In this document: positions 3,153 to 62,442 of the stretch, in pieces
Numbering within the stretch: the stretch's first letter is position 1
Layout: each line of letters opens with the position of its first letter
Virus record (IMG/VR): IMGVR_UViG_3300021426_000082
DNA length: 64,000 nucleotides
Direction: 5' to 3' (one strand)
DNA from: an uncultured virus (IMG/VR IMGVR_UViG_3300021426_000082)
Lineage: Duplodnaviria > Heunggongvirae > Uroviricota > Caudoviricetes
Position numbers and translations under genes: made by a program
The notes under the pieces: generated by a model
The model's database searches: none
What the model was told of the DNA's origin: nothing
What the model saw: only the letters and a program-made list of their open reading frames with translations

Positions 3153-3381
3153 ACATATCGTACCTCAGTGTTACGCATGTATCGCGCTTGCCTTGCACCG
3201 AGAGTTCGGATGGGGGTTCACCAGGATAAACAGATTGTTCGTGAGTTCTCAGGAAATATGGAACGAATCAATAGAACGTGATATTGATATGGTGCAGATG
3301 TGTCTGGATGAAACAGGAATAGAGTGCAGGTCAGCAGTTGAGCATGATCATTTGCAAGGAGAAAGAAAGGGAAATGGATGA
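3097..3381 (+). CDS. phage hypothetical protein
   Basis: ALHREFGWGFTRINRL motif; RBS present. Confidence 0.6.
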   Translation: MAGNKQYIRMVKEFRRRVEHIVPQCYACIALALHREFGWGFTRINRLFVSSQEIWNESIERDIDMVQMCLDETGIECRSAVEHDHLQGERKGNG

Positions 3382-18824: not shown

Positions 18825-19043
18825 ATGCAGACTGTCTTAATATCAGGTGTTGACGGAACTATTGTAAACTTTGAACACGTAACAAGGATTTACAAACAGG
18901 GCGGCTATATACATGCCGAACTCACCACAGGGAAACAGATTCCTTTGTATTTCAACAAGAATTATGATGCGGTAAACAGTTACTTCGACAGCCTTATTGA
19001 CAACATACTTGACATAAGAGTTTTCAGGATGAGAACAGACTAA
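18825..19043 (+). CDS. hypothetical protein
   Basis: GAGGTG RBS; stop overlaps terL start. Confidence 0.55.
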   Translation: MQTVLISGVDGTIVNFEHVTRIYKQGGYIHAELTTGKQIPLYFNKNYDAVNSYFDSLIDNILDIRVFRMRTD

Positions 19044-21658
19044 TGGACAATCTTCAGATAATTGACCAGCTTTTACAGACAGACTTAACCAACTATATCA
19101 ATCTCAGGGACCTGCTTGCAATGTCCAAAGAAATACGCGGGGACGATGCGGAAATGTCCAAGCTGATCATGCAGAAAGTAAGGGAAGTAGCAATAGCACA
19201 ATGTATGGAAGGCAGGGACGATTTCTATACACTGTATAATGATGCTCTGCTCTTGATGGCTTCTGTACACAAAGATTTTGATTCGTTCCTGCTTTATGTC
19301 GAGAAAGACAGGGAGCCGCGTGAATCATTTTATATACCGCGTCGCAAACAGCTTCTTGATTATGTCGTCAAGCCGATGCAGAGACTTCTGGATGGTGAGA
19401 TTGATATACTTTCAATCTCAATGCCACCTGGAACCGGAAAAGGGCAATTACCAAGTGCAAAGATACTGACACCTGATGGATTTAGAAGGCTTGGCGATAT
19501 AAGGGTAGGTGATTTTGTAATATCAGGCACAGGGAACGTTGCTGAAGTCCTTGGCGTGTTCCCGAAACCGCGGATGCCTGTATACGAAGTAGTGTTTGAG
19601 GACGGAACGAAAGTGAAGTGCTCACAGGACCACATATGGCGCGTCCAGAACAGAGACGGCCGCAGATACGGATGGTATCAGAATGTAGAAGTAAAAGACA
19701 TGCTTGACCGCGTTGTAATTGACCGCCATCTGAATTACAGTGTCGATTATGTTCCGCCGATAGATATTCAGGACAAAGAACTGCCGATAGACCCGTATGT
19801 GTTAGGGGTACTGCTTGCTGACAACAAGTACGGAGTGGGCATCAGGGTAACGACTGCTGATAAATATATTATCGACGCCATCACAAACCTGGCACCCATT
19901 ACAGCCAGACACGTCATCGGGAATGATTACAGGGTTGTCTCAGATGGTTGGCTTGAACGCGAACTTACAAAATACGGCCTGTTCCGTATAAGCAATCAGG
20001 ATAAATTTATACCGGACGATTACAGGTACAATACTTACTACAACCGATTTGAGCTATTGCGCGGACTGCTCGATATGGACGGCGTTATAGATGGCGACAG
20101 CGTTAAGTATCAGGCACCTTCAAAAAGATTTGCGTCATACCTGATTGAACTGGTGCAGTCGGTAGGTGGATACGCCAAAGAAGAAAACGATCTTGAAATC
20201 ACTATAAAATTCGGGGACGTGGAGCATAACCCGTTCCATGTACCATACAAAGCAGATGGCTTCTTGCCGTCTATGGACAGAAAACTGTGGAAACGTCGCA
20301 TAAGGCGGATTGATTACGTGGGTGATATGGAAACGATATGTATTTACATTAATGACCCATCTCATCTGTATATCACAGACGGTTATGTGATTACCCACAA
20401 TACGACGCTCGGAGAGTTCTTTACTGCTTTTTATATGGGGTTGTACCCTGAACGTTATAATCTGATGTCGTCTCATTCCGGTTTTATGACGCGGATGTTC
20501 TATGACGCGGTACTTAATATCATTACGTCAAAAGAATACCGATGGAGTGATATTTTTCCTACTGTGAAATTCGAATCCACAAACGCCAAAGAGGAATCAA
20601 TCAACCTTGGCAAGTGGAAGCCGTTTAAATCATTGACATGCAGACCTATCCACGCGTCTCTGACAGGTGTTACAAGATGCAATGGCCTGCTATATTGTGA
20701 TGACCTGGTATCCGGTATTGAAGAAGCGTTATCCATAGACCGCCTGAACAAGCTGTATGGAGAATATGTGACCGATTTAAAGTCACGAAAAAAACAAGGG
20801 GCCGCCGAACTGCATATTGCGACCAGATGGTCAGTACACGATCCGATTGGAAGATTACAAAGACAGTACGACAATTCCGGAAATGCGGAGTTCGTATCGG
20901 TTCCGGATATAGATGTCCATACGGGCGAATCAAATTTCGATTACTCATACGGAACGGGCTTCGACACGGCCTATTTCAACGATATGGAAAAAACCATGGA
21001 CGATGTAACATATCGTTGTCTCTACAAAAACGATCCGATAGAACGCGAAGGAATCTTGTACCACCCGAATGAACTGCTCAGGTATTTTGATCTTCCTGTT
21101 GACGACGAGGGAAAAACAAAGGAACCCGACGCAATCATAGCGGTGTGCGATACAAAAGATACCGGAACGGACTACAATTCGCTTCCAGTGGTTTACGTTT
21201 ATGGTGACAAGTATTATTTAGAGGATATTGTATTTAAGAATATTGACCCCGGCACGCTTGATGAACTTAACTCAAATATGCTTGTCAAACACAGGGTACA
21301 GGAAGCCAGGTTCGAATCAAACAAAGAAGGCTCCAGAACCGCAAATGAGGTAGAACGGAAAGTAAAAGAAAAAGGTGGCAGATGCCACATAACCAAAAAG
21401 TACACTACTCAGAACAAAGAGACAAAAATAATCGTGACCTCATCCTGGGTGAAACAGCACGTTTATTTTAAAGATGAGACTTGCTATGAACCGAAGTCTG
21501 ATTACGGCGTTTTCATGAGTTATTTATGCAGCTACACACAGTTGGGGAAGAACAAGCATGATGACGCACCTGATTCGATGGCCATGCTTGCGCAGTTCGC
21601 AGACAATTTGATCGGAACAGCGATGGTCGTGATGAGCAGGGAGGAATTAGGGTTTTGA
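19043..21658 (+). CDS. terL: terminase large subunit with intein
   Basis: ISMPPGTGK|TT Walker A after splicing, LLYCDD Walker B, ATRW, RNase H nuclease (VCDTKDTGTD, KHDDAPDS). Confidence 0.92.
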   Translation: MDNLQIIDQLLQTDLTNYINLRDLLAMSKEIRGDDAEMSKLIMQKVREVAIAQCMEGRDDFYTLYNDALLLMASVHKDFDSFLLYVEKDREPRESFYIPRRKQLLDYVVKPMQRLLDGEIDILSISMPPGTGKGQLPSAKILTPDGFRRLGDIRVGDFVISGTGNVAEVLGVFPKPRMPVYEVVFEDGTKVKCSQDHIWRVQNRDGRRYGWYQNVEVKDMLDRVVIDRHLNYSVDYVPPIDIQDKELPIDPYVLGVLLADNKYGVGIRVTTADKYIIDAITNLAPITARHVIGNDYRVVSDGWLERELTKYGLFRISNQDKFIPDDYRYNTYYNRFELLRGLLDMDGVIDGDSVKYQAPSKRFASYLIELVQSVGGYAKEENDLEITIKFGDVEHNPFHVPYKADGFLPSMDRKLWKRRIRRIDYVGDMETICIYINDPSHLYITDGYVITHNTTLGEFFTAFYMGLYPERYNLMSSHSGFMTRMFYDAVLNIITSKEYRWSDIFPTVKFESTNAKEESINLGKWKPFKSLTCRPIHASLTGVTRCNGLLYCDDLVSGIEEALSIDRLNKLYGEYVTDLKSRKKQGAAELHIATRWSVHDPIGRLQRQYDNSGNAEFVSVPDIDVHTGESNFDYSYGTGFDTAYFNDMEKTMDDVTYRCLYKNDPIEREGILYHPNELLRYFDLPVDDEGKTKEPDAIIAVCDTKDTGTDYNSLPVVYVYGDKYYLEDIVFKNIDPGTLDELNSNMLVKHRVQEARFESNKEGSRTANEVERKVKEKGGRCHITKKYTTQNKETKIIVTSSWVKQHVYFKDETCYEPKSDYGVFMSYLCSYTQLGKNKHDDAPDSMAMLAQFADNLIGTAMVVMSREELGF
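19442..20401 (+). mobile_element. class 3 intein (320 aa) with LAGLIDADG domain in TerL Walker A
   Basis: starts GQLPSAKILTPDG, block B CSQDHIW, block F TICIYI, ends YITDGYVITHN followed by Thr; LLRGLLDMDG. Confidence 0.88.
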
Positions 21659-23426: not shown

Positions 23427-23508
23427 ATTTTACTCAGAGTAGAGAAAAACGACTTGACGTAAAAAATGGTTTAAACTGAAGGAAAATACTGGCTGGATTT
23501 AAATAATA

Positions 23509-23613
23509 ACCGCGGGACACGCGGGGATAGCCTGCTTATGCTCAGCCCGGCAGGGCTGTCGAACAGGAAGCCCCCACTTCTTAGCGCCAGCGAAAGTGGT
23601 GGGAGTATGTCAC
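23509..23613 (+). mobile_element. orphan IS200/IS605 right end / TnpB omega-RNA scaffold
   Basis: ACCGCGGGACACGCGGGGATAGCCTG...GAACAGGAAGCCCCCACTT..AAGTGGTGGGAGTATGTCAC; no tnpB ORF. Confidence 0.75.
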
Positions 23614-23627
23614 AATCAGTAATAGTT

Positions 23628-23747
23628 CAGTTGACTTGACCGCTGTAAGGTGATGGACATTCCACTCACCGGAGCTTTTCCGGAATTTGGAGTTTTATGG
23701 TTTACCGATTTCAGGAAGGCATCAAGAACGATGCAGAGAAGAACATA
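23628..23747 (+). ncRNA. orphan Cas12f-type tracr scaffold plus one 36-nt repeat and guide
   Basis: CAGTTG-ACTTGA-CCGCTG-TAA-GGTGA..TCACC scaffold as at 58602 and 60214; repeat 23692-23727 resembles 58692-58727. Confidence 0.75.
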
Positions 23748-23900
23748 AAAATTTATTGCCCGCATTGCAGGAAATACGGTCGCGACAAACTACTTTTCCA
23801 AGTCGATAAGACAACGACAGGGAGAGTGATTATAAAATGCCGTGGCTGTCGTAACCTTGTGACAATAGAACTGGTAAAAGGTGAGCCGAAAGAGCCGTGA
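23697..23900 (+). CDS. Com-like zinc-ribbon regulator
   Basis: IYCPHC...KLLF...IIKCRGCR; GGAG RBS; first gene of late region. Confidence 0.65.
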   Translation: MVYRFQEGIKNDAEKNIKIYCPHCRKYGRDKLLFQVDKTTTGRVIIKCRGCRNLVTIELVKGEPKEP

Positions 23901-23916
23901 AAGCGGCTCTTTTTTT
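23883..23916 (+). terminator. terminator with tandem GAGCC motif (copy 1)
   Basis: GAGCCgaaaGAGCCG-TGAAAG-CGGCTC-TTTTTTT. Confidence 0.7.
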
Positions 23917-23977
23917 GGATTTTAAGCAAGAATCTGGAGTTTTGCGAAAACGTGAAGCCATCAAAAGAGAGGGAAAC

Positions 23978-25555
23978 ATGCTTGAAAAAGATGTGACTCG
24001 TCAGTATGGACGTTTAAAGATAAGGACTGACGAAAAAGAAATCACAAAAGATAATATAGAAGCCGTAGTATCCCTTGCATGGGCCGAACATCAGCACAAC
24101 GCTAAACGCGAGGAATGGCTCATAGATTACAAAAAAGGCGACCAGCCTATTCTCGACAGGGTTAAAAAGGTACGCAAGGATCACAATGCAAAGGTAGTAG
24201 AGAATAACGCGTCGAAGATCGTAGACTTCCATAAGGCATACTGCTTTTCACAGCCCATTACACTTGTGCAAAGAGCAAAGAGAGAGGTGGGGAAACCGGA
24301 ACAGGCCGGAGAGGAAGATGATTTAAAAATCAGTCTCCTTAACAAAATGATGGTTGAGCAGGGCAAGCCGGGAAAAGACATCAAATTAGCAGAAGATGTC
24401 TTTTCGTGCGGACTTGGATATAAGATGGCTATCCCCATCAGGGAAAAACTTGTTAGGCGCGGACGTTGTTCTGCGTTTGAAATCTCTGTCCCGAACCCCC
24501 TCACAACATTTATGGTATATTCCAATGATGCCTATGATGAGGAAATGCTGGCATGTACCTACAATGTCCGGAAAGACGGGAAAGTGGACCTGACTGCCTA
24601 CTCTGAAAACTATTGTTTTGAACTGCGGGCAGAAAAGGTAAGTTCACTCGGAACGACGAATATAGCGGACTTTAAGATGGTCAAAAAGGTCACACCGAAC
24701 ATCCTGGGTATTATCCCTATTGTTGAGTATTCGATTACAGACCGTATGGCTATCTTTGAAAAGGTCATCCCGATCATGGATGCGATTAACCTGATTGATT
24801 CAGACCGCGTTAATGATATTACACAGCACGTCCAGTCCTTATTGTGGATGCATAACTGCCTGCTTGACAAAGAACAGAAAGAACAGCTTGTGGATGGCAA
24901 TGGTGTCGTGATGACAAAATCCACAGGTGACGGGCACGAAGCGAAGATTGTCTATTTGTCGCAGGTTCTTGACCAGTCCGAGGTTCAGAAAGAAGTTGAC
25001 CACCTTGTAGCGCAACTGCAGGAAATCACATCGACACCATCATGGAGAGAAGCAAGCGGAGGCTCCACGACAGGTGCAATGCAGTTGTCTAACGGTTGGC
25101 AGTGCGCGGAACTGTTCGCAAAGGTTGTTGAACAGCAGTTCAACGCAGCAGAACAGAAATTCCTGGACATTTGCATACAGATTATCAAGGCGGACGAAAG
25201 AGATTTTGACGGCCTGAAAGACATAGAGCTTGCTGACATTGAACCTCATTTCTGCCGTACAAAGACTTACGATCTTGTGAGCAAAGTCAACGCACTTGTG
25301 TCATTGTTAAATGTAGGTGTCGATGGACTTACAGCTTTCAATACAGTTGCATTGTTTACTGACTGTCAGCAGGCGTGGATTGATTCTGCACCTACGATCC
25401 TGAGACTGCAGGAGAACATCGGAAAGACGCAAACCGATATGTCGTGGCGGGCAACGCGTGACGAAGATGGAAACGGCGGAGAAAACAATACAGAAAAAGA
25501 CATAACCGAAGAAACAATGTCACCGAGCAAGGTGGCGGAGGTGGACGGTGTATGA
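23978..25555 (+). CDS. portal protein (SPP1 gp6-like)
   Basis: YKKGDQPIL, KVVENNASKIVDF, IPIVEY, FEKVI..MDAIN; position. Confidence 0.85.
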   Translation: MLEKDVTRQYGRLKIRTDEKEITKDNIEAVVSLAWAEHQHNAKREEWLIDYKKGDQPILDRVKKVRKDHNAKVVENNASKIVDFHKAYCFSQPITLVQRAKREVGKPEQAGEEDDLKISLLNKMMVEQGKPGKDIKLAEDVFSCGLGYKMAIPIREKLVRRGRCSAFEISVPNPLTTFMVYSNDAYDEEMLACTYNVRKDGKVDLTAYSENYCFELRAEKVSSLGTTNIADFKMVKKVTPNILGIIPIVEYSITDRMAIFEKVIPIMDAINLIDSDRVNDITQHVQSLLWMHNCLLDKEQKEQLVDGNGVVMTKSTGDGHEAKIVYLSQVLDQSEVQKEVDHLVAQLQEITSTPSWREASGGSTTGAMQLSNGWQCAELFAKVVEQQFNAAEQKFLDICIQIIKADERDFDGLKDIELADIEPHFCRTKTYDLVSKVNALVSLLNVGVDGLTAFNTVALFTDCQQAWIDSAPTILRLQENIGKTQTDMSWRATRDEDGNGGENNTEKDITEETMSPSKVAEVDGV

Positions 25556-26272: not shown

Positions 26273-26305
26273 GCGTATATAGGTGTCACAGCTTATTTGC
26301 GCGCT

Positions 26306-30788: not shown

Positions 30789-31177
30789 AAAAATATGGCT
30801 CTTACACAGAGCTTGTCAATAAAGTTTGGTTGCCGAAAGCGCTTTACCTTGGTATCAGCGAGGAAAAATTCTGGCATATGAATCCGAGAAAGATGGAGCC
30901 GTATGCAGAAGCCATGAACATGAGAGTTCAGGATGAAAATCGCAGAATCGAGGTAACGGCATGGGCGAATGGCCTTTATGTATATAAAGCGGTTGGTGCG
31001 ATATTCGGCAAACACGCGCCTAAATATCCGAGCAAGCCTGACACCATCTTCCATGATGGGAAAGCAGAAAAGGATAGCATGACCGATGCTGATAGATTCT
31101 ATCAATACATGGTATGGCGTAACGCCCAAAAAAACAGCAAACCCACGGGGAATAGGCTGACGAGCCGAAAAACGTAG
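30698..31177 (+). CDS. tail assembly chaperone -1 frameshift extension (gpT-like)
   Basis: -1 frame open from the slippery site into ORF 30830-31177 (GISEEKFWHMNP). Confidence 0.75.
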   Translation, partial: GFWDDRGGDGDRSGRDQRSDYERDREKKEIKKYGSYTELVNKVWLPKALYLGISEEKFWHMNPRKMEPYAEAMNMRVQDENRRIEVTAWANGLYVYKAVGAIFGKHAPKYPSKPDTIFHDGKAEKDSMTDADRFYQYMVWRNAQKNSKPTGNRLTSRKT

Positions 31178-31251
31178 TCCTTGCGTCTTTTCCCGTGTTT
31201 GCATTTTAAAGGACAATTCAAGGTTAAAAGGACGACCATAGGAGATGCGAA

Positions 31252-34200
31252 ATGCCTACTATTGATCAGTTAGTCATTGAGATAGAAAATAAGGCAAAAG
31301 GCACTTCCAATGGCATAGAGCAACATGTGGCGGCGCTCGAAAAGCTAAACAACGCGCTGAGCGGTGTTGGCAATGTAAAAGAGTATGCCGATGCAATATC
31401 AAAACTTGCCAATGCAACCGGACAGATTGATAAAAAATCTTTCTCGTCTTTCACGGGGAGCCTTAAAAGATTTGCTCAGTCTGCACAGGTGGCTGATGGC
31501 AGGATCACAGAATTAACAAACGCGCTGGCTAATCTTGCTAATGCCACAAAAGGCATGGATGCAAGTGGCTTGTCGTCCGTAGCTGATGCGGTTTCCAAGA
31601 TGGGCGGGATGAACAGCGAAAACGTTGACCGTCTTGCCACAATGATAGAGCAACTGCAACAGAAACTTGACGCGGCGAACGCAGATGGAACAAAGGTTAA
31701 AGTCGATACCGATGAGGCCGAGCAGAAAGTTGACAACCTCAACGAGAAGTTAGACCAGACACCCGAAGAAGTAACCGTTGCAGAAACAACAGAGACACCA
31801 GATGTACAGGGACCTTCAGGCGTAGACGTTACACCCCCTACATCAGCGTGGCAGGGGTTTGGACAGGTACTTGGGAATGTGGCATCTTATCTGCAGATGT
31901 CCATTCCTGGTCCAATCGGCGCGGTTGTAAGCGGACTATCCAGTATAGCAAGAGTAGGCATAGGGGCTTTTACTGGAGTTGCAAGAGGCGCAGGATTAGC
32001 TATAAGCGTATTGGGGAAGGTCGGCAGTAAGGCTATTCAAGCGGGTAGCGCGATACTTTCATTACCCGGACGGATAGGGAGTGCGCTTTCCTCAGCGATA
32101 ACAAAGTTTCCGGTGCTCGGAAATGCCATCCAGGGCATACAAGGTAAACTTAGTTCCGTTGGCCGACTTCTGACATTCATGCTGTTAAGGAAGGCGTTTA
32201 CGGCATTAATCCAGAACGCAAAGCAGGGGCTTGACAATCTGGCCATGTACTCTGATTCGATTGGATCACGGTTTAACCAGAGTATGTCAACATTATCCTC
32301 TGATTTTTCGTGGGCCGGGAACGCACTTGCAACCGCGTTTGAGCCAATACTGAATATCGCTATCCCTATCATAGATGCGCTTATGACACATCTTGTCGCA
32401 GCTATGACGGTGATTGCGAGGTTCTTTGCGGCCCTTGGTGGTTCTGCCACATACACAAAGGCTATCAAGTTAAACAACAACTATGCGAAGTCGTTAGGTA
32501 GCTCGACGGGGGCAGCGAACAAAAACGCAAAGGCTACGCGCGGAACAGGAAAGGCGGCCAAGAAAGCATCTGAGGACCTTAAATCCTACACGACTTCCAT
32601 AGATGAGTTAAATATACTTGAACCCGATAAGTCTGCGTCCACTGGTTCTGGTGGTTCCGGTGGTGGCGGTGGTGGCGGCATCGGCGGAGGTGGCATTGAT
32701 GTCGGCTCCATGTTCGAAACTGTCACATTAGACAGCGAAGCGCAGAATTGGGCAGAGATGTTCAGGAACGCGTGGAAAAATGCTGACTTTACAGAGATAG
32801 GTGCTATTGTAGGCACTAAACTCCGGGATTCGCTCAATAACATAAACTGGACTGACATTCAGAAAACATGCAACAAGATCGCAAAATCCATTGCCACGTT
32901 CATTAACGGATTTGTTGGCGTTGATGGTTTGTGGGAATCTGTAGGCATGACGTTAGCTCAGGGAATGAACACACTTGTCTATATGCTCAATACAGCGGTC
33001 ACTACGCTTAATTGGAAAAGCATAGGTGCGGCCGTTGCAAAGACAATCAAAAGTGCGTTTGTAAACTTTGACTGGTACGCTGCGGCGTTAACATTAGGCA
33101 ATACAATAGGCGGTATCCTCGATGCAATAACAGGATTTATCCAGGAAATAGACTGGAAAAAAGTGCCGAAAGTGCTGTTCGATACTATCATCAAAGTTAT
33201 AAAGGGGTTTGGTGACAGCGGGCTTGTTTCTGCTATTGCGGAATTATTAGGCTCAGCCGTTGGCGCGGTAGTAGGCATGATAGGCGGAATATTCGGAAGT
33301 ATAGGTTCCGCTATTGCTAAGTGGTGGGGAAGCATCACTGATCAGTTGCCGAGCCTTACAGAACTCAACCCGATAGACTGGCTCTACGAAGCGGGCAAAC
33401 TTGTTATAAAAGGTCTGCTAAAGGGTATTGGCGATGCTATTACTGGTATTGCGGGATGGATCAATGACAATATCTTTACCCCGTTTATTGAAGGGTTTAA
33501 GAGCATATTCGGTATCCACAGCCCCTCGACCGTCATGGAAGAGATGGGCGGTTATCTTATCGAAGGACTTTTGAACGGTGTATCACTTGCATGGGATACA
33601 GTAACAGAGTTCTTTAGTGGTGCATTAGAAGGATTAAAAGCCTTCTTTAAAGACCCGATTGGAACCATAAAAGTCACCGTCGAAAAAGGTGTTGACAAGG
33701 CTAAAAAAGTCTGGAACACGTTTAAGAACAGCGAAGCCGTTAAGACGCTGAAAAGCAAAGTCAAAGCAGGATTTAATAAAGCCAAAGAAAAGTGGGATGC
33801 CTTTAAGAACAGTGATGCCGTAAAGAGTGTTAAAGCGAAAGTCGAGGGCGCGTTTAATTCTGCAAAAGAAAAGTGGGACGCTTTCAAGGATAGCGAAGTT
33901 GTCAAGAGTGTTAAGGGCAAAATTGATAGCACATTCACATCTGCCAAAACTGCTTTTGAAAAGATCAAAGACAGCAAAGCGGTCAAGACTATCACGGCTG
34001 TTCTGACAGGGGCTTTCAATACCGCCAAGACAAAGTACGAAGAAATCAAAGATAAGGCAACTAAGTGGGTCGGTAATGGCGGACTGTCTACTGCCTTCAA
34101 TACGGCTTCGAACGCATACAATTCCCTTAAAGATTATGCGCGAACATTCACTGGCAAAGGAAATACGAACAGCACCTTTACCACAGCAAAAAATGCGTTC

Positions 34201-53662: not shown

Positions 53663-54329
53663 AATATAGTTTCCTTCTGATTTCAAATACTTTTCCGACT
53701 ATCTCAATAGGCATCTTCTCTATATCATCAAGGTCGTATGTCATCGGCATATACATAGGGTTAATGCTCTGCAGGTAGATGTGTTTATCGTCGCGCTTTA
53801 TGACCTTGCACGTTGCGTCGTCACCATTCACTCTGACAACGGCTATCTCACCGTCCTCTACGTTTTCCTGGACGCGCACAACAACCATATCCCCGTCCTC
53901 AATTTTCGGGTACATTGAATCACCGCGGATGATCAGACCAAAAAAGTCTCCGCGCCTTTTCAACTCTGACGAGATTTCTGTACTATCAATAATGTTTTCC
54001 TCTGCGAATATAGGCATACCCGCCGCGACCCTTCCGACAACAGGGATTTTAATAAGTCCGTTAACAGCCCTGCTTTCAATTTTGCTTTCATATTGAACAC
54101 GGATGTCGTCGTCAAGCATCTGCAGTAACTCATCAAAGCTCATACCCATTGCTTTTGCGCAACTTTTGATGGTGGTTATGGTGGGTATGATTTCTGTATC
54201 CGTTCCATATCTTTTCCCGCGCCTGAGTGCATAGAGATATGTACGACTTAACCCTGTGCGCTTTTCCATCTCAGCAAGTTTCATATCGTGCTCGTCACAA
54301 TAGTTCACAAGGATTTCACCTAATTTCAT
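53661..54329 (-). CDS. CI-like repressor (HTH plus S24 autopeptidase)
   Basis: N-terminal HTH; VAAG cleavage site, GDSM, ATCK. Confidence 0.92.
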   Translation of the reverse strand: MKLGEILVNYCDEHDMKLAEMEKRTGLSRTYLYALRRGKRYGTDTEIIPTITTIKSCAKAMGMSFDELLQMLDDDIRVQYESKIESRAVNGLIKIPVVGRVAAGMPIFAEENIIDSTEISSELKRRGDFFGLIIRGDSMYPKIEDGDMVVVRVQENVEDGEIAVVRVNGDDATCKVIKRDDKHIYLQSINPMYMPMTYDLDDIEKMPIEIVGKVFEIRRKLY

Positions 54330-56226: not shown

Positions 56227-57050
56227 TGGAGTTAACAAACGACAATTATTACTCTATGGAGAGCAATATGTACTACTGCTCAGTCAGTCAGTACAAATCA
56301 TTCATAGGCACACCAAGCAATCCCGCCTGTGAAGCTGCGGCCATGGCAGACCTGAGAGGTGAGATAGAACATAAAGCAGTATCAACTGCATTGTTAGTCG
56401 GTTCTTATGTTGATGCGTATTATTCCGGTGAGTTTGATCAGTTCATTGACGAGCATCCTGAGATATTCAGAATGAACGGGACACTGAAATCAGCGTTCAA
56501 GCAGGCAAATACAATGATTGCCAGAAGTAAAAAAGATGCGCTTTTCCAGAGATATATGGAAGGCGACAAACAGCTTATTCTCACTGGTGACATTGAGGGT
56601 GTCCCGTTCAAAGTCAAGATAGACAGTACGGACCACAAGAGGATTACCGACTTAAAAACGGTCCGGAAAATCTCTGAGACGTTTTTTGTCAAGGATTCCG
56701 GTGAGAGAATCACGTTCATAGAAAAATGGAACTATGACCTGCAGGCCGCTATTTATCAGGAAATATACTTCCAAAACTACGGAAAGAGATTGCCGTTCTA
56801 TATATGCGCAGTCGATAAAAGCCGCAGTTCGATAGATGGTTCTTTCCACCCCAGGATTGCGGTCATACAGATACCGCAGTCAGCTATGGACGACAGGCTT
56901 GCAGAGGTCAGACATAATGTACGTCGCATAGAAATGTTAAAGACCGGAGAGATAGAGCCGATTGCCTGTGGTGTATGTGACTACTGCGCAGACACATTAC
57001 CGCTTACAAGGCCGATCAGCATTGATGAATTGTTAACGGAGGTGCAATGA
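56223..57050 (+). CDS. PD-(D/E)XK exonuclease (DUF3799/RecE-like)
   Basis: LT.DNYYS, SVSQYK, K.KID, DLKT, YDLQAAIYQ, CG.CDYC. Confidence 0.85.
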   Translation: MMELTNDNYYSMESNMYYCSVSQYKSFIGTPSNPACEAAAMADLRGEIEHKAVSTALLVGSYVDAYYSGEFDQFIDEHPEIFRMNGTLKSAFKQANTMIARSKKDALFQRYMEGDKQLILTGDIEGVPFKVKIDSTDHKRITDLKTVRKISETFFVKDSGERITFIEKWNYDLQAAIYQEIYFQNYGKRLPFYICAVDKSRSSIDGSFHPRIAVIQIPQSAMDDRLAEVRHNVRRIEMLKTGEIEPIACGVCDYCADTLPLTRPISIDELLTEVQ

Positions 57051-58591
57051 GACTTGTAAAGATTTCTGCATCATCGGTGCAGATTAAGTCAAACGACAAA
57101 GAGTTTGAGGGATTAAGGATCAATGACCTGATGAGGATTACAGATGGCACAGCAAACCTTGTGGTCATGGTCAGCAACATCACGTCAGCAGATACGGACG
57201 ATGACGAGATGTTTATCAGGGCGACAAAGATGCGCGTTGTAGACTGCGACATCATAGGCTCGATTACGGACGGTCATTTCCATACTGACATTAATACGTA
57301 TCCCACAACCGACGTAAGCATTAGCGGTATCACTCAGGACGAGTTCAGGAACATGCTCATGAAGTTTGAGAACAACGGATTCAAGCTGGGCGTGTATGCC
57401 GACTATGAAGTAGACGCTTATGTAAATGCGAACAAGTTGTTCCAGAGACACGCCTGCCTGCTTGGTAATACGGGTTCCGGTAAATCCGAAACGGTAGCAA
57501 AGATACTGCAGGAGATTTCCAAAAAGCGGTCAACGAATGTCCTGGTATTCGATATTCACGGTGAGTATTCGAACATTAGCTACGTCAAGAGCTATAAGGT
57601 AGGAACGGATGACTGTCCTATTCCCATCTGGATGTTCGGTTTTAATGGTATCGTATCCAATATCCTGCGCATCAAAGAAGAAAGCTCAACAGTGGTCATG
57701 ACTGCACTCAGGAAATGCTATTACCAGGTGTGTCCGGATGGTAAAGAAAACAAACCTATATGGTTCGACTACAAAGCCTTAATCAATGCCATGGTCAACC
57801 TCAACACCGAGGTTATAGGTACGGGCGACTTCTATAAGACAGGCGACAGAGCAGGTCAGGAAAAGACAAAGGCCGGAGAGTTCAACGGAAAGCTCGATAC
57901 AGTGATTGCAAAACTCAAAGACCGCTTAGAGGATTCCCGTTACAGGTTCCTTTTCAACGATCCTGGACAGGGGGCTTTACACACATTGTTCTCTATCCTG
58001 TTTGAAAAAGGTGGCGTAAAGAGTTTTGATTTTTCAGATGTTCCCCATGATGTAGCAGTCCCGATCATCGGAATTATCACAAAACTTGCCTATGACGGTC
58101 AGCGGACACAGAGAGATATTTGCCCCATGGTCATTTTCTGTGACGAGGCACATGTATATATCCCTGCATCCGATCAGTTATCATCCTCACAGCGACGCAT
58201 GACAGAGACGTTTGAAGAGATTGCAAAAGAAGGCCGTAAGTTCGGCGTGACACTTTTCCCGGCAACGCAGCGTCCTTCAGAGCTTAACAGAACAATCCTG
58301 GCTCAGTGCGGTAATTTTATTGTAATGAAACTGAACAACGAGAATGATAAGACCATCGTTAAAGGTATGTTACCCGAAGGTAATGTAGGCATCGTAGAAT
58401 CAACAACAATGTTCAGGCCGGGTGATTGTATCGTCATCGGTGATGCAAGTCCTATCCCTATCAAAGTGCATGTTGACCTCGCAGACGAAAGACCCACAAG
58501 CAGGACTATTGATTTCTGGTCAGAGTGGGATAGGGAAAGAGAACAGGCAGACGTGAATGACATTATAAGCAGCTATTTATCATCGTTTTGA
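57047..58591 (+). CDS. HerA-like ATPase (DUF87, with HAS-barrel-like N-terminus)
   Basis: RHACLLGNTGSGKS, FDIHGEY, CDEAH, IAKEGRKFG, TQRPSEL, QC.N. Confidence 0.85.
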   Translation: MRLVKISASSVQIKSNDKEFEGLRINDLMRITDGTANLVVMVSNITSADTDDDEMFIRATKMRVVDCDIIGSITDGHFHTDINTYPTTDVSISGITQDEFRNMLMKFENNGFKLGVYADYEVDAYVNANKLFQRHACLLGNTGSGKSETVAKILQEISKKRSTNVLVFDIHGEYSNISYVKSYKVGTDDCPIPIWMFGFNGIVSNILRIKEESSTVVMTALRKCYYQVCPDGKENKPIWFDYKALINAMVNLNTEVIGTGDFYKTGDRAGQEKTKAGEFNGKLDTVIAKLKDRLEDSRYRFLFNDPGQGALHTLFSILFEKGGVKSFDFSDVPHDVAVPIIGIITKLAYDGQRTQRDICPMVIFCDEAHVYIPASDQLSSSQRRMTETFEEIAKEGRKFGVTLFPATQRPSELNRTILAQCGNFIVMKLNNENDKTIVKGMLPEGNVGIVESTTMFRPGDCIVIGDASPIPIKVHVDLADERPTSRTIDFWSEWDREREQADVNDIISSYLSSF

Positions 58592-58601
58592 TAGATGTGC
58601 T

Positions 58602-58669
58602 CACCTGACTTGACAGGTGTAAGGTGAGGGAAGATTCCACTCACCAGAGCCTTCCGGAAGGCATCAAGG
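58602..58669 (+). ncRNA. natural single-guide scaffold (tracr fused to repeat half)
   Basis: CACCTG-ACTTGA-CAGGTG, GGTGAG/CTCACC, GCCTT-CCGG-AAGGC, ends ATCAAGG. Confidence 0.75.
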
Positions 58670-58764
58670 ATAACTGTACAGATTCTTTTTTGTTTTATGG
58701 CCTTCTGGTTTCGGTAAGGCATCAAGGAGGAAATAGCAAACTTGCTTTCGGGAAGGCATCAAGA
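58651..58764 (+). CRISPR. degenerate micro-array upstream of Cas12f-like gene
   Basis: three AAGGCATCAAG ends (58668, 58726, 58763); one full 36-nt repeat 58692-58727; spacers of 22 and ~15 nt. Confidence 0.65.
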
Positions 58765-58848
58765 TGGATATGTTTATGTATGGCATGGTTGTCTGATACA
58801 TAAAGGAGAGAGCAGGCACAAAAAAAGCAAAAGAAAAGAAAGGCACCA

Positions 58849-60201
58849 ATGGCAAAAGATAGTTATGTTATGACGCGCAAAATCCAGGTGATTCCGGTAG
58901 GAGATAAGGAGGATATAGACAGGGCATACAAGTACATTCGTGATGCACGATACGTCCAGAACAGAGCGTACAATCTCCTTATCTCAACGGTATATGCGGC
59001 GATCATATCAAGAAAGAGTAACGAAGAAATAAACACGATATACAAAAGGGGTTCCAGAAAGCCAAAAGAAAATGATCCCGAATACAGTCTTTATGACTAT
59101 GACACATATCATTTTCCGGTAGGGCTTCCGATAGCGTCGGGGCTTAGCCAGCGTGTTAAGAGCGATATTAAAAAAGCAAAGCAAAACGGATTGTTTAAGG
59201 GTAATTCGTCCCTGCCTAACAAGAGAAGAACATCGGCGTTAGAGCTGCATCCTGATTATGTTAGGGTGATGGCTGAGAACAAAAGGCCCAATGGGTTGTA
59301 TCACAAGTATGATTCTGATGACGAGTTCTACGAGGCGTTAAGGACTGGAACACCAGAAATATACTGGAAGTTCTGCAACGGAATAGAGTTCAAGATGGTC
59401 ATACGGAACCCAAGGAAAGACGCATGTATCCGGTCAGAACTCGAAAAGATATTCAAAGGCGAGTATGCGATTAACGGGTCGCACATTAACATCTCAGACA
59501 GCGACAACAAGATAATTCTTTTCCTGACATTCACTGTACCTAAATCAGACAGGCAGTTGCTTGAAGATGTGACAGTAGGTGTAGATGTAGGGATGGCGAT
59601 ACCTGCGGTATGTGCGCTTAATAGCAATCCTGGGCCGAGATTATTTACGGGAACATACATCGTAGACGGCAATACTCACAAAGGAACGTCAGAGCTATTA
59701 AGACAGCGGACTTCAATTCAGAATCAGCTTAGAAGGCATCAAAGCGGACTTAAATACAGTAGTGGTGGTCACGGCAGGGCAAAGAAGCTACGGTCGCTTG
59801 AAAAGCTGAAGGACAGGGAAAGGAATTTTGTAAACACCTATAACCACAGGATTTCAAAAGCGGTCGTTGATTTTGCGCTGAAACACAAAGCGAAATATAT
59901 CAACATCGAAGAATTAAAAGGATATGATGCTAATGATTTGATTCTTCGTAACTGGTCATACTACGAACTGCAGAACATGATCACTTACAAGGCAGAGCGT
60001 TACGGAATCACTGTCAGGAAAATAGAACCCGCCTATACTTCTCAGACGTGTTCATGTTGCGGAAACGTCAGCAAAGCACAGAGAAGGAGCCAGAGTGAAT
60101 TTGTCTGCATTAATCCTGATTGCGAGAACTACATGAAAGTGGTCAATGCGGATTACAATGCCGCCAGAAACATCGCAATGTCAACTAAATATGTAAAATA
60201 G
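58849..60201 (+). CDS. cas12f: Cas12f-like (TnpB-superfamily) compact RNA-guided nuclease
   Basis: RuvC D246 (VGVDVG), E354 (INIEEL), D435 (NADYNAARNI); GGHGRAKK, LRNWSYYELQ, YTSQTCSCCG; flanked by tracr-like scaffolds and repeats. Confidence 0.88.
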   Translation: MAKDSYVMTRKIQVIPVGDKEDIDRAYKYIRDARYVQNRAYNLLISTVYAAIISRKSNEEINTIYKRGSRKPKENDPEYSLYDYDTYHFPVGLPIASGLSQRVKSDIKKAKQNGLFKGNSSLPNKRRTSALELHPDYVRVMAENKRPNGLYHKYDSDDEFYEALRTGTPEIYWKFCNGIEFKMVIRNPRKDACIRSELEKIFKGEYAINGSHINISDSDNKIILFLTFTVPKSDRQLLEDVTVGVDVGMAIPAVCALNSNPGPRLFTGTYIVDGNTHKGTSELLRQRTSIQNQLRRHQSGLKYSSGGHGRAKKLRSLEKLKDRERNFVNTYNHRISKAVVDFALKHKAKYINIEELKGYDANDLILRNWSYYELQNMITYKAERYGITVRKIEPAYTSQTCSCCGNVSKAQRRSQSEFVCINPDCENYMKVVNADYNAARNIAMSTKYVK

Positions 60202-60213
60202 TCAGCGATGGCT

Positions 60214-60270
60214 CGGTAGACTTGACTGCCGTAAGGTGAGGTCAAACAGGCACTCACCAGAACCCTTGCA
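60214..60270 (+). ncRNA. tracrRNA-like scaffold with anti-repeat
   Basis: CGGTAG-ACTTGA-CTGCCG, GGTGAG/CTCACC; ACCCTTG complementary to repeat CAAGGGT. Confidence 0.75.
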
Positions 60271-60285
60271 AAGTTAATAATTGGC

Positions 60286-60443
60286 CCTTTGGAGGACTGT
60301 AGAACCACAAGGGTATCAAGGCTACAGTGTTGGACATAGAAAACATTGATGCCTTTGGAGGACTATTAAACCGCAGGGGTGTCAAGGGCAAACTTAGCAA
60401 ATGCTACCCTTTGGAGGACTGTAAAATCACAAGGGTATTAAGG
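60286..60443 (+). CRISPR. mini CRISPR array: three 36-nt repeats, spacers of 30 and 20 nt
   Basis: CCTTTGGAGGACTGTAGAACCACAAGGGTATCAAGG at 60286, variants at 60352 and 60408. Confidence 0.85.
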
Positions 60444-60467
60444 TCAAGGTAGAAAGGACTTAAAAAA

Positions 60468-60893: not shown

Positions 60894-61367
60894 ATGGCGT
60901 GGGTAAAAGGAATCCCGCCGAAAATGCTGCATGACAAGCTCGGTATTTATCGCGAGGGCGGGTGGCACGCAGAGATGGACCGTTGCTGGGTTGACGGGAC
61001 CTATTGTGTATGCTCACGAATCATTAGAACACAATTCGGCAACGTGGAGCATGTAACGATCACAAAGGGCGGTGGTACGTATGACGGTTCCGGTGAGGTG
61101 ACTTGGGCGGAAAAGATGCGTATTAAGAATGAACTGTTCGGGGAGAACAGATTTGCTATTGAGGTTTTCCCGAAACAGAAGAACCTGGTTGATGTGTGCG
61201 ATGTCTATCACCTTTGGGTATTTGACAAAAAGGTAAATATGCCTTTTGGAATCGGCAAAAAAGAAATGGTCCATGCTATCAACCGCGGTTATAACATAAC
61301 GCCCGCTGAACTGGAAACGTTAAACAGCGCAATTAACAAAGGAGAGACTATTGGAAGTCTGGCGTGA
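60894..61367 (+). CDS. phage hypothetical protein
   Basis: TWAEKMRIKNELFGE...AIEVFP...LVD....HLW. Confidence 0.65.
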   Translation: MAWVKGIPPKMLHDKLGIYREGGWHAEMDRCWVDGTYCVCSRIIRTQFGNVEHVTITKGGGTYDGSGEVTWAEKMRIKNELFGENRFAIEVFPKQKNLVDVCDVYHLWVFDKKVNMPFGIGKKEMVHAINRGYNITPAELETLNSAINKGETIGSLA

Positions 61368-61896
61368 GGTTCCAGGTTATAACGGAAGGTATTTTGCAAG
61401 CAACAAGGGCCGGATTAAAAGCTATACCGGACACATACTTTCGATGATCAAAAGGTGCCGTGGTGAGAATGTAAGATATGTTGTCACGACAACCAAAAGT
61501 GACAACCGCAGGGGGGCGGCGAGTGTAGCCAGAATGGTATGGCTTGCTTTTAATGGTATTCCACCTCCGGGATACATGGTGGTGCATAAGAATGGTTTTC
61601 AACACGACAACAGGCTTTCAAACCTTATGTTGATGCCAAGAAAGTCACCGCCGCTGATACCACCTAACCAGAAACCAGTCATCAAAATATCAAAATCTGG
61701 AGAGATATTAGAGCATTACACATCTGCAAAAGAGGCGGGTGACGCTAACTACTTTGCAGATACGACTATATCAAGGAGGGCGTTAGGGCAGGTCAAATAT
61801 CCTTTGGATGGCGGGATAGACTTTTGCTATGACACGAACGAAAGCTACAAAATGGCCCTTAAAAGGCTGGGACTTAAACCGAAGAACCTGTATTGA
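61351..61896 (+). CDS. NUMOD4-HNH endonuclease
   Basis: EVW..VPGY.GRY..SN.GR, HKNG..DN...NL. Confidence 0.8.
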   Translation: MEVWREVPGYNGRYFASNKGRIKSYTGHILSMIKRCRGENVRYVVTTTKSDNRRGAASVARMVWLAFNGIPPPGYMVVHKNGFQHDNRLSNLMLMPRKSPPLIPPNQKPVIKISKSGEILEHYTSAKEAGDANYFADTTISRRALGQVKYPLDGGIDFCYDTNESYKMALKRLGLKPKNLY

Positions 61897-61920
61897 CGAA
61901 AGGGACAAACGCTTTTGGGA

Positions 61921-62442
61921 ATGAAGGAACAGACACCTGAAATATGGAAGGACATTCCTGGTTATGGTGGTAAATATCAGGCATCTATACATGGCAATAT
62001 CCGAAGGGTATATGAAAGCGGAAAGACAAGGCAATTAACACCTTGGCATCGTAAGATGAGAGGAAGTCCCCGGCTTGTAGTCAAGCTGACCCACGAAGGA
62101 AAGAGCAGGGAGGCCGTGGTCTTAGGTCTTGTGGCCCTGACGTTCATAGGGCCTCGTCCAGAGGGATACGTGCCATATCACATAAACGGTATGCAGAGCG
62201 ATAACAGCGTCAGGAACATTGCGTATATATCCAGAAAAGAACTTGGACGACTGACCGGACCGGGAGCACGCAGAAAGCCAGTGGCTAAGATAGACGCTAC
62301 AGGAAATGTGGTCGAATACTATTCGTCTGCAAGGGAAGCGGGCAGAAAGAATCATATGTCATATCAGGCCATCTTGGACAGGTGCAACGGAAAAATAAAG
62401 AACCCCACGGCTCTTGATGGACATAACTATTTATGGGATTGA
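61921..62442 (+). CDS. NUMOD4-HNH endonuclease
   Basis: EIWKDIPGY.GKY, HING..SDN...N, NUMOD1-like tail. Confidence 0.8.
   Translation: MKEQTPEIWKDIPGYGGKYQASIHGNIRRVYESGKTRQLTPWHRKMRGSPRLVVKLTHEGKSREAVVLGLVALTFIGPRPEGYVPYHINGMQSDNSVRNIAYISRKELGRLTGPGARRKPVAKIDATGNVVEYYSSAREAGRKNHMSYQAILDRCNGKIKNPTALDGHNYLWD

Follow-up and report, generated by a model that had tools for sequence, protein, structure and literature searches.

A Cas12f1-type gene between guide-RNA cassettes

We analyzed a 64,000-nucleotide (nt) stretch of an uncultured Caudoviricetes virus (IMG/VR record IMGVR_UViG_3300021426_000082; "the window" below means this whole stretch), in which a gene for a 450-amino-acid (aa) protein resembling Cas12f1, an effector of CRISPR systems, lies between two putative guide-RNA loci. 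Each locus starts with a short scaffold that resembles a trans-activating CRISPR RNA (tracrRNA) and runs into its own repeats, a unit that we call a cassette. A third cassette sits ~35 kb from the nuclease gene and overlaps a small open reading frame (ORF). The features of the three cassettes and of the gene are as follows.

23628..23681, + strand: remote scaffold C, with hairpin 1 at 23628-23645 (one T.C mismatch), hairpin 2 at 23649-23670, and anti-repeat GCTTTTCC at 23674-23681
23692..23727, + strand: single repeat of the remote cassette, type A (as in the upstream locus)
23728..23747, + strand: guide-position sequence C1, equal to codons 11-17 of the small ORF
58602..58648, + strand: scaffold A, tracr-like, with hairpin 1 at 58602-58619 (loop ACTTGA) and hairpin 2 at 58623-58645 (GGTGAGGG...CCACTCACC)
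58649..58669, + strand: anti-repeat GCCTT, CCGG loop, and truncated repeat AAGGC-ATCAAGG, cis-fused to scaffold A
58670..58689, + strand: guide A1, taken as ~20 nt, then a T-run
58692..58727, + strand: full 36-nt type-A repeat (GTTTTATGG...AAGGCATCAAGG), internally self-complementary
58728..58743, + strand: short spacer A2, ~16-18 nt
58744..58764, + strand: partial type-A repeat, 3′ half only, ending AAGGCATCAAGA
58765-58784, + strand: terminal guide A3
58849..60201, + strand: cas12f1-type gene, 450 aa, with RuvC residues D246/E354/D435 and a C-terminal Zn ribbon (C401, C404, C420, C425)
60214..60268, + strand: scaffold B, with hairpin 1 at 60214-60231 (loop ACTTGA), hairpin 2 at 60235-60258, and anti-repeat ACCCTTG at 60262-60268
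60285..60443, + strand: type-B mini-array of three 37-nt repeats (60285-60321, 60351-60387, and 60407-60443)
60322-60350 (29 nt) and 60388-60406 (19 nt), + strand: type-B spacers
60444-60463, + strand: trailing guide after the type-B array

The pattern ACTTGA-N6-TAAGGTGA is found exactly three times in the window, always on the + strand (at 23634, 58608, and 60220), compared to an expectation of 0.5 from shuffles, where three copies were reached in 1 of 100. A covariance model run with its filters off likewise recovered only the three scaffolds (62.4, 56.0, and 50.6 bits). Both results agree with a first-pass annotation of the window, made from its letters alone, which had described three scaffold copies of one architecture. 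The next-best match of the model, at 26286 (14.5 bits), is not a scaffold copy.

In every copy, hairpin 1 (a 6-bp stem with an ACTTGA loop) is followed by TAA, hairpin 2 (GGTGA...TCACC, in which a bulged A is conserved), a further 3 nt, and an anti-repeat that fits the copy's own repeat, and the letters of the hairpin-1 loop complement those at the repeat's 3′ end. The compensatory changes by which the stems of the three copies were said to differ are real, but the copy at 23628 has one mismatch in each hairpin (the T.C mismatch in hairpin 1 and one atop hairpin 2), and its minimum-free-energy fold misses hairpin 1 (z -1.23). The fold of scaffold A yields both hairpins (z -3.82). Together with the cis-fused anti-repeat and truncated repeat, it makes up a 68-nt unit (58602-58669) that folds into three hairpins (-28.3 kcal/mol, z -3.82) and, judging by this predicted fold, would form a natural single-guide scaffold. 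Full repeats are self-complementary on folding as well. Scaffold B starts 13 nt past the stop codon of the cas12f1-type gene and does not overlap the ORF.

Scaffolds are therefore present on both sides of the gene, as the first pass had proposed, but the upstream locus is not a plain array, because it combines a cis-fused truncated repeat, one full repeat, and one partial repeat. The cassette anatomy bears out the view that several scaffolds, together with repeats of two types, serve a single nuclease gene. No Rfam family matches the guide loci, either at the gathering threshold or at E ≤ 1. Spacers A2 and B2 (58728-58745 and 60388-60406), which come from different arrays, have the 8-mer GCAAACTT in common, either by coincidence or through a shared target.

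The nuclease belongs to the Cas12f1 family

The 450-aa product matches Pfam PF07282 (Cas12f1-like TNB, 4.8e-21) and NCBIfam guided_TnpB (1.3e-47). Among all PDB sequences, its top match is 8hr5 (2.4e-66), followed by 9nzp (4.6e-52, residues 8-449 aligned, full length), 9nzo/9nzr, and then the 8j12/7wju group, whereas ISDra2 TnpB reaches only 8e-3. Of these entries, 8hr5 is CnCas12f, 9nzp is RhCas12f, and 9nzo/9nzr are Al3Cas12f, with 9nzq being OsCas12f; the same source cites CnCas12f as the structure nearest to Al3Cas12f (PMC13186708). Predicted structure gives the same picture: for an AlphaFold2 model built from a 20-row alignment (predicted local distance difference test score, 83.8), the nearest Foldseek match is again 8hr5, titled CnCas12f1 (E 2.7e-29, template modeling [TM] score 0.69). 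Al3, As, Sp, dCas12f, Os, and Un1 Cas12f come next, so that the top matches are all Cas12f, and TnpB, Cas12p, and LaTranC rank well below. The likeness to a clostridial Cas12f1 that the first pass had pointed out is thus borne out by both sequence and fold, and the two motifs on which it had been based (GGxGR, here GGHGR, and LRNWSYY) align with the corresponding motifs of 8hr5.

Residues D246, E354, and D435 and cysteines C401, C404, and C425 are invariant in a 20-sequence family alignment, which confirms the earlier description of a RuvC protein with its three catalytic residues and a Zn ribbon. Based on the family matches, the fold, and these invariant residues, the protein is, by sequence and modeled structure, a Cas12f1-type nuclease that groups with CRISPR-associated Cas12f1 rather than with TnpB borne by insertion sequences (IS), and the enzyme looks catalytically competent. 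Because of this grouping, the label "TnpB-like" that the first pass had also applied is true only in a broad sense. Identities as a Cas12p "hacker" or as a TranC were both rejected on size and distant similarity.

In a large protein database there are 1530 homologues; the two nearest are 100% and 67% identical, and many others are at ~50%. Where names are given, they read "endonuclease [Caudoviricetes sp.]," "IS605 OrfB family transposase," and "transposase [Bacteroidales bacterium]." Type V-F1 Cas12f1 acts as an asymmetric homodimer on one guide RNA; a homodimer prediction for the window protein scored 0.15 against a mark of 0.42, which we count neither for nor against such a dimer.

The guide architecture is conserved across the family

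The family alignment, used as a query, brought up 80 phage loci in IMG/VR (136 confirmed) and another 80 in bacterial genome assemblies, the latter mostly from Lachnospiraceae and other Clostridia and also from more distant Bacteroidota. The flanks of these loci carry the same scaffold architecture in other sequences. Across 28 aligned scaffolds, 98.6% of cells pair, a value that is partly circular because the alignment rows were chosen by a pattern requiring both hairpins, and both-sided changes are seen in 10 of 13 pairs. None of 500 shuffles reaches these values, and slid controls pair at 31-48%.

The first pass had suggested a covariance-model search of phage databases as a check. With a model built from rows of the 28-scaffold alignment (R1), the 80 IMG/VR phage loci gave 194 matches and the genome loci 39 (in 32 of the 80), and all 233 are on the strand of the nuclease gene. 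According to the R1 table, scaffolds occur on both sides of the gene in 54 of the 80 phage loci, only downstream in 23 (often as 3-4 tandem cassettes), and only upstream in 3, and 68 loci have at least two scaffolds; these locus counts are not independent events, because many IMG/VR loci are near-duplicates. When hairpin-2 letters alone were used as an anchor, a perfect hairpin 1 was found at the fixed offset for 54 of 156 + strand anchors, and none of the 50 − strand anchors reached 5 pairs. These two less biased tests, the strand of the R1 matches and the hairpin-2 anchor, agree with the pairing result.

Other searches added little. The exact scaffold pattern, run on 39 of the 64 IMG/VR parts, gave at least 5 hairpin-compatible matches among those listed, none of them real, and an IMG/VR look-up with the single protein returned nothing. 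A pattern scan of metagenomes yielded 25 stretches, of which only three loci (on two contigs) match, all identical to the window: in this collection, the pattern detected the nuclease gene a single time (L299/L300, on the same contig) and likewise the remote copy (L283).

Four family loci (L001-L003 and L051) have a ~60-nt AT-rich insertion in hairpin 2 of a scaffold located ~55-120 nt past the gene end. In the same loci, sequences directly 5′ of the nuclease gene resemble tRNA genes, by appearance only.

Scaffold loops and tails covary with the repeats

The complement of loop nucleotides 2-6 of hairpin 1 is found at the end of the downstream repeat for 54 of 58 scaffolds and for 14 of 17 distinct loop sequences, compared to 140 of 925 pairings (15%) for foreign loops. 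The loop and the repeat end change together: the window pair ACTTGA/TCAAG has counterparts in ATTTTG/CAAAA, ACCTTT/AAAGG, ATTCGA/TCGAA, and GTTGGA/TCCAA. This family-wide covariation strongly supports the pseudoknot between loop and repeat end that the first pass had deduced from the three window copies. A pseudoknot at the repeat end is also described for Un1Cas12f1. The anti-repeat shows similar specificity. Beyond the three window copies, each of which fits its own repeat as claimed earlier, the scaffold tail has a complementary run of at least 6 nt to the repeat segment just before the loop-pairing site in 40 of 54 cases, versus 20% of foreign pairs.

At ten loci, two scaffolds with unlike loops lie beside one gene. 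These loci suggest cassette-specific addressing, with each scaffold directed to the repeats of its own cassette.

Array content turns over while the gene persists

The window stretch is present in cattle-gut metagenome contigs from nine studies. In contigs from four other runs (four studies), the nuclease gene is mostly 95-99% identical, whereas the arrays differ. In one contig, 60322-60428 is replaced by 178 other letters; another has a different spacer and then a repeat after 60321; and further contigs skip or replace 58655-58834. Thus, array content turns over between strains while the gene and scaffold persist, as seen in assembled contigs, not in reads. Since the phage has no adaptation genes, there are two candidate routes for this turnover: new array content may be acquired via a host Cas1-Cas2 or may arise by recombination between cassettes.

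Contigs of two runs from two other studies (X8 and X12), aligned to 58602-58651, contain a further scaffold copy in another sequence context. The copy (50 nt, with 7 differences in the X12 record) has a different tail past hairpin 2. This copy would be a fourth cassette type in related phages.

A proposed adaptation-less Cas12f1 system

The protein family, the catalytic residues, the cassette anatomy, the conserved and covarying RNA structure, and the array turnover lead us to propose that the window phage probably encodes an adaptation-less, type V-F1-like (Cas12f1) CRISPR system of duplicated tracr-plus-mini-array cassettes. In such a system, the 450-aa nuclease would be produced from the early region of the temperate phage, and each cassette would be transcribed as a short two-hairpin tracr-like scaffold running directly into its own repeats. 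To form the guide RNA, the anti-repeat would base-pair with the repeat, whose last 5-6 nt would also pair with the 6-nt loop of hairpin 1 in the pseudoknot. In the first unit of a cassette, this pairing could occur in cis and give a natural single guide, such as the one with the 68-nt scaffold at 58602-58669, whereas later repeats would be paired by the scaffold in trans. Assembled with such a guide, the nuclease would cut double-stranded DNA that matches a ~20-nt spacer and is flanked by a protospacer-adjacent motif. By analogy with phage-borne CRISPR systems (PMC11656645) and also from the strain-specific spacers, we suggest that the system probably has a role in conflicts between mobile elements and is directed against competing elements.

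Several observations weigh against this proposal, in addition to the partial circularity of the pairing value, the near-duplicate loci, and the dependence of the turnover result on assembled contigs. One set concerns targets. Among GenBank phages, array B and the remote region have no match, and array A has three weak matches only (E 0.2-3); for the arrays of two relatives, one has no match there and the other has weak matches only (E 0.1-0.5). Exact-match searches of IMG/VR with guides A1 and C1 came back empty. Spacer B1 matches 20 of 20 nt in two sequence-identical IMG/VR contigs, but at an estimated ~0.1-0.2 chance matches per 20-mer query this match is unproven; the matched virus has no detectable homologue of the window portal and is apparently unrelated. 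Matches of spacer B2 fall in four unrelated contexts and were treated as chance. Even with as many as 5 mismatches allowed, no guide has another site in the window. When 369 crudely extracted family "spacers" were compared with the family loci by local BLAST, only tandem-repeat noise and spacers common to related loci emerged. The inter-phage competition that the first pass had favored therefore gained no convincing protospacer from the GenBank phages, IMG/VR, or the window.

A second set concerns the RNA. No promoter-like site adjoining the scaffolds was found. Of the 21 runs with the window stretch, none is listed as an RNA run, and the one RNA run of the likely source sample contains almost none of the stretch's words. 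The three window copies show no sequence conservation 5′ of hairpin 1, and because of this the long 5′ stems 1-2 of characterized Cas12f guides, which belong to guide RNAs of ~130-200 nt, are not evident here; stem 2 is described as essential for RhCas12f (PMC13186708). In addition, the upstream array has an irregular layout, and both A2 and B2 are short for spacers.

The phage genome around the system

A Pfam scan of the 79 window ORFs indicates a phage genome or prophage, and the window phage is a temperate phage of the cattle gut. Its assigned genes include the following.

19043-21655: large terminase (supported by PHROGs)
23897-25552: SPP1-type portal gene (Pfam)
53664-54329, − strand: CI-like S24 repressor (Pfam)
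57047-58588: HerA-like ATPase, early region (Pfam)
Early region: RecT, PDDEXK nuclease, the cas12f1-type gene, two HNH-NUMOD4 genes, and several DNA methyltransferases (Pfam)
Elsewhere in the window: small integrase gene; MuF-like protein, SU10-type capsid protein, tail genes, and holin; GH25 lysin with CW_7-repeat neighbors (Pfam)

In the same scan, no ORF matched cas1, cas2, cas4, or tnpA or another transposase of the IS200/IS605 kind, in line with the absence of cas1, cas2, and tnpA reported in the first pass; likewise, no sigma factor, rpoE, or helix-turn-helix (HTH) partner was matched.

The 871-aa ORF at 19043-21655 joins a C-terminal large-terminase nuclease/ATPase part to an N-terminal P-loop part that matches DnaC-like loader and primase PHROGs. 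The two HNH-NUMOD4 genes, homing-endonuclease-like and in tandem (61351-62442), lie 1.1 kb 3′ of cas12f; after them come methylases of the N6/N4 (62433) and C5 (63658) types, and a third, Dam, is located at 3378. The sole match in the window at an Rfam gathering score is an int-alpA RNA (31145-31212, + strand; 41.2 bits, E 4.4e-05), directly 5′ of a 1340-aa ORF at 31252.

A remote cassette upstream of the portal gene

A 66-aa Zn-ribbon ORF (23697-23897), which ends at the portal gene, has its ATG (23697) inside the remote cassette's repeat. In the whole contigs of five relatives, all 10 scaffold matches adjoin the nuclease gene, which makes the remote copy unusual. It was found in at least two of the four other runs whose contigs were compared. 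The small Zn-ribbon protein (CPHC...CRGC) has two database relatives only (P0121 and P0122), and the N-terminus of P0122 differs from that of the window protein exactly over the residues encoded by the 3′ half of the repeat and the guide. Candidate roles for the remote unit are a functional stand-alone guide gene, a device of the homing type, and an element that controls translation.

Directly 5′ of the remote scaffold is a GC-rich, hairpin-rich stretch of ~107 nt (23506-23613) that is missing from the run X12 contig, where, at a loose end, ...GGATTTAAA is joined straight to ATCAGTAATAGTT. This stretch may be a small inserted element.

Alternatives to an interference system

The anatomy of the remote cassette raises the question of whether the protein is a regulator instead of an interference nuclease. 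Its ribonucleoprotein would then bind phage or host DNA or the leaders of its own mRNAs; at the remote cassette, Cas12f would attach to the late operon's leader and cover the start codon of the small ORF (23697) along with its ribosome-binding site. Indeed, a GGAG motif and the ATG of ORF 23697-23897 are located inside the cassette directly 5′ of the portal gene, both of them within the repeat, between the anti-repeat and the repeat's 3′ half. The small ORF is conserved, its N-terminus varies exactly across the repeat and guide positions, and none of the five relatives' whole contigs has a remote copy, so the remote unit is a special case. Relatives of Cas12f are described as having been exapted as RNA-guided transcription factors (PMC13472631). 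However, the RuvC triad of the window protein is intact and invariant across the family, unlike in the known regulatory derivatives, and no guide matches a second window site within the 5 mismatches allowed above; binding of the leader RNA in cis is pure conjecture on our part. We therefore regard this reading as unlikely.

The positions of the terminal guides could also be explained if the cassettes behaved like transposons or homing elements. The sequence after the terminal repeat would serve as the guide, as in the omega-RNA of TnpB; related phages without the cassette would be cut at the matching site, and repair would copy the cassette together with linked markers. Guides A3, B3, and C1 at the array ends are flanking phage sequence, the remote cassette adjoins packaging genes, the small-ORF allele P0122 differs exactly in the guide-encoded residues, and the two HNH-NUMOD4 genes 1 kb 3′ of cas12f indicate that homing elements populate the region. 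Yet P0122 is unlike guide C1, so this allele would escape cutting, and no cassette-free allele with a matching protospacer was found. There is neither a transposase nor a pair of transposon ends, the scaffold lies clear of the gene's 3′ end, and internal spacers vary between strains as they do in arrays. Consequently, we hold homing of this kind to be very unlikely as the general explanation.

Least probable of all is a decaying remnant, in which the gene and degenerate repeats persist without current guide function: the irregular upstream array with its short spacers, the mismatches in the copy at 23628, and the lack of found targets would fit, but the catalytic residues are intact, the RNA structure is kept by compensatory change across many lineages, and the gene stays ~95-99% conserved between samples from several studies even as array content changes.

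Our preferred proposal of an adaptation-less V-F1-like system can be extended into a joint reading, which we offer only tentatively and consider rather doubtful as a whole. A large family of gut-phage Cas12f1 proteins would use minimal guide cassettes with a two-hairpin scaffold of ~50 nt (68 nt when cis-fused), far below any characterized Cas12f guide. Orthogonal cassettes, each self-addressed through its anti-repeat and pseudoknot, would serve one protein and would duplicate and move as units. In the window phage, one of them would have moved 35 kb and become fused to the start of a late gene, where it would serve for RNA-guided homing against the alleles of rival phages or would switch late-gene translation in a Cas12f-dependent manner.

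Comparison with known systems

Type V-F1 CRISPR-Cas12f1 systems (CnCas12f1, 8HR5; RhCas12f, 9NZP; AsCas12f, 8J12/7WJU; Al3Cas12f, 9NZO) are of the same family and fold, with an intact RuvC and Zn ribbon. The window system is also like them in its 36-37-nt repeats, its helper RNA with an anti-repeat, and an array beside the effector gene. The marks of this type are found here, namely, a Cas12f1-homologous effector of 400-700 aa with a TnpB-like WED/REC/RuvC/Zn-finger fold and a D-E-D triad, an adjacent array, and a predicted tracr anti-repeat and pseudoknot; the adaptation genes cas1/cas2/cas4, which only some V-F1 loci possess, are matched by 0 of the 79 ORFs. The phage system differs in its ~50-nt conserved two-hairpin scaffold, compared to guide RNAs of 129-156 nt reported for Cas12f (PMC13186708). 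It also differs in having the scaffold in 2-4 copies per gene, on both sides, each running straight into its own mini-array and some cis-fused, and in being phage-borne without adaptation genes. The greater Cas12f branch usually has arrays but no Cas1/2/4, and Cas12f1 and its V-U40-43 relatives are said to have [quoted passage not shown] (PMC10691335).

The wider Cas12f1 clade also includes the dCas12f or RpoE-associated inactivated TnpB proteins, with which the window system has in common the single-guide fusion and the duplication of guide units (PMC10691335, PMC13472631). In the RpoE-linked inactive clade, half of a repeat is described as fused to the tracrRNA, with the unit then duplicated (PMC10691335), and the same history of splitting and later collapse is described in PMC13472631. 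Unlike dCas12f-sigmaE systems, in which RuvC is inactivated or truncated and rpoE is a neighbor, the phage nuclease is intact, has no rpoE or HTH partner, keeps true repeat-spacer units beside the fused ones, and resides in a phage. The first pass had seen the locus as a possible intermediate between omega-RNA and CRISPR guides. The cis-fused units fit this view, but it is just as possible that tracrRNA and half-repeat became joined again secondarily, and the concept is not new, because it is already in print for this clade (PMC10691335, PMC13472631).

IS200/IS605 TnpB has the ancestral fold, and its guide, like those of the window, lies 3′ of a structured scaffold downstream of the gene, with terminal guides that are flanking DNA. 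However, the window has no tnpA or transposon ends, the gene turned up once in the metagenome collection rather than as a mobile, multi-copy gene, and its protein is much nearer to Cas12f1. Nor is there the overlap that characterizes omega-RNA: scaffold B begins past the stop codon, and the copies at 58602 and 23628 are not preceded by an ORF of the family. TranC systems such as LaTranC share the concept of systems between omega-RNA and split CRISPR RNA (crRNA)/tracrRNA, but LaTranC has 574 aa and a ~157-nt scaffold (10.1101/2025.09.28.678669), and its structure 9jfq is a distant fold match (rank 37, TM 0.39). With the Cas12p "hacker," CasLambda, and virus-borne mini-arrays, the window system shares the phage setting, small arrays, lack of adaptation, and proposed mobile-element conflicts (10.1101/2025.01.20.633832; PMC11656645). 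Cas12p and CasLambda are different effector families (9jfs, E 4e-9; 8dc2, distant fold match), and classic viral mini-arrays have repeats identical to those of a host CRISPR system and use host Cas proteins, whereas the window phage encodes its own effector.

In the main texts searched, we found no description, for nuclease-active phage-borne members, of the short two-hairpin scaffold, of its occurrence in several copies flanking the gene, of fused units next to split ones, or of loop/repeat-end pairs that differ inside one locus. Should the short scaffold be the complete helper RNA, few known RNA-guided DNA cutters would be as compact as this 450-aa nuclease with its single-guide scaffold of 68 nt, and natural orthogonal pairs of scaffold and repeat would come with it. 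The family also shows phages retaining Cas12f systems that lack adaptation, in the form of duplicated guide cassettes with spacers that still change between strains. One and the same locus allows a comparison of fused, half-fused, and split guides, as living examples for the transition from omega-RNA to tracrRNA/crRNA and for its reversal. The compact natural guide and the organization into cassettes are the main points of interest of this phage system, and both are directly testable.

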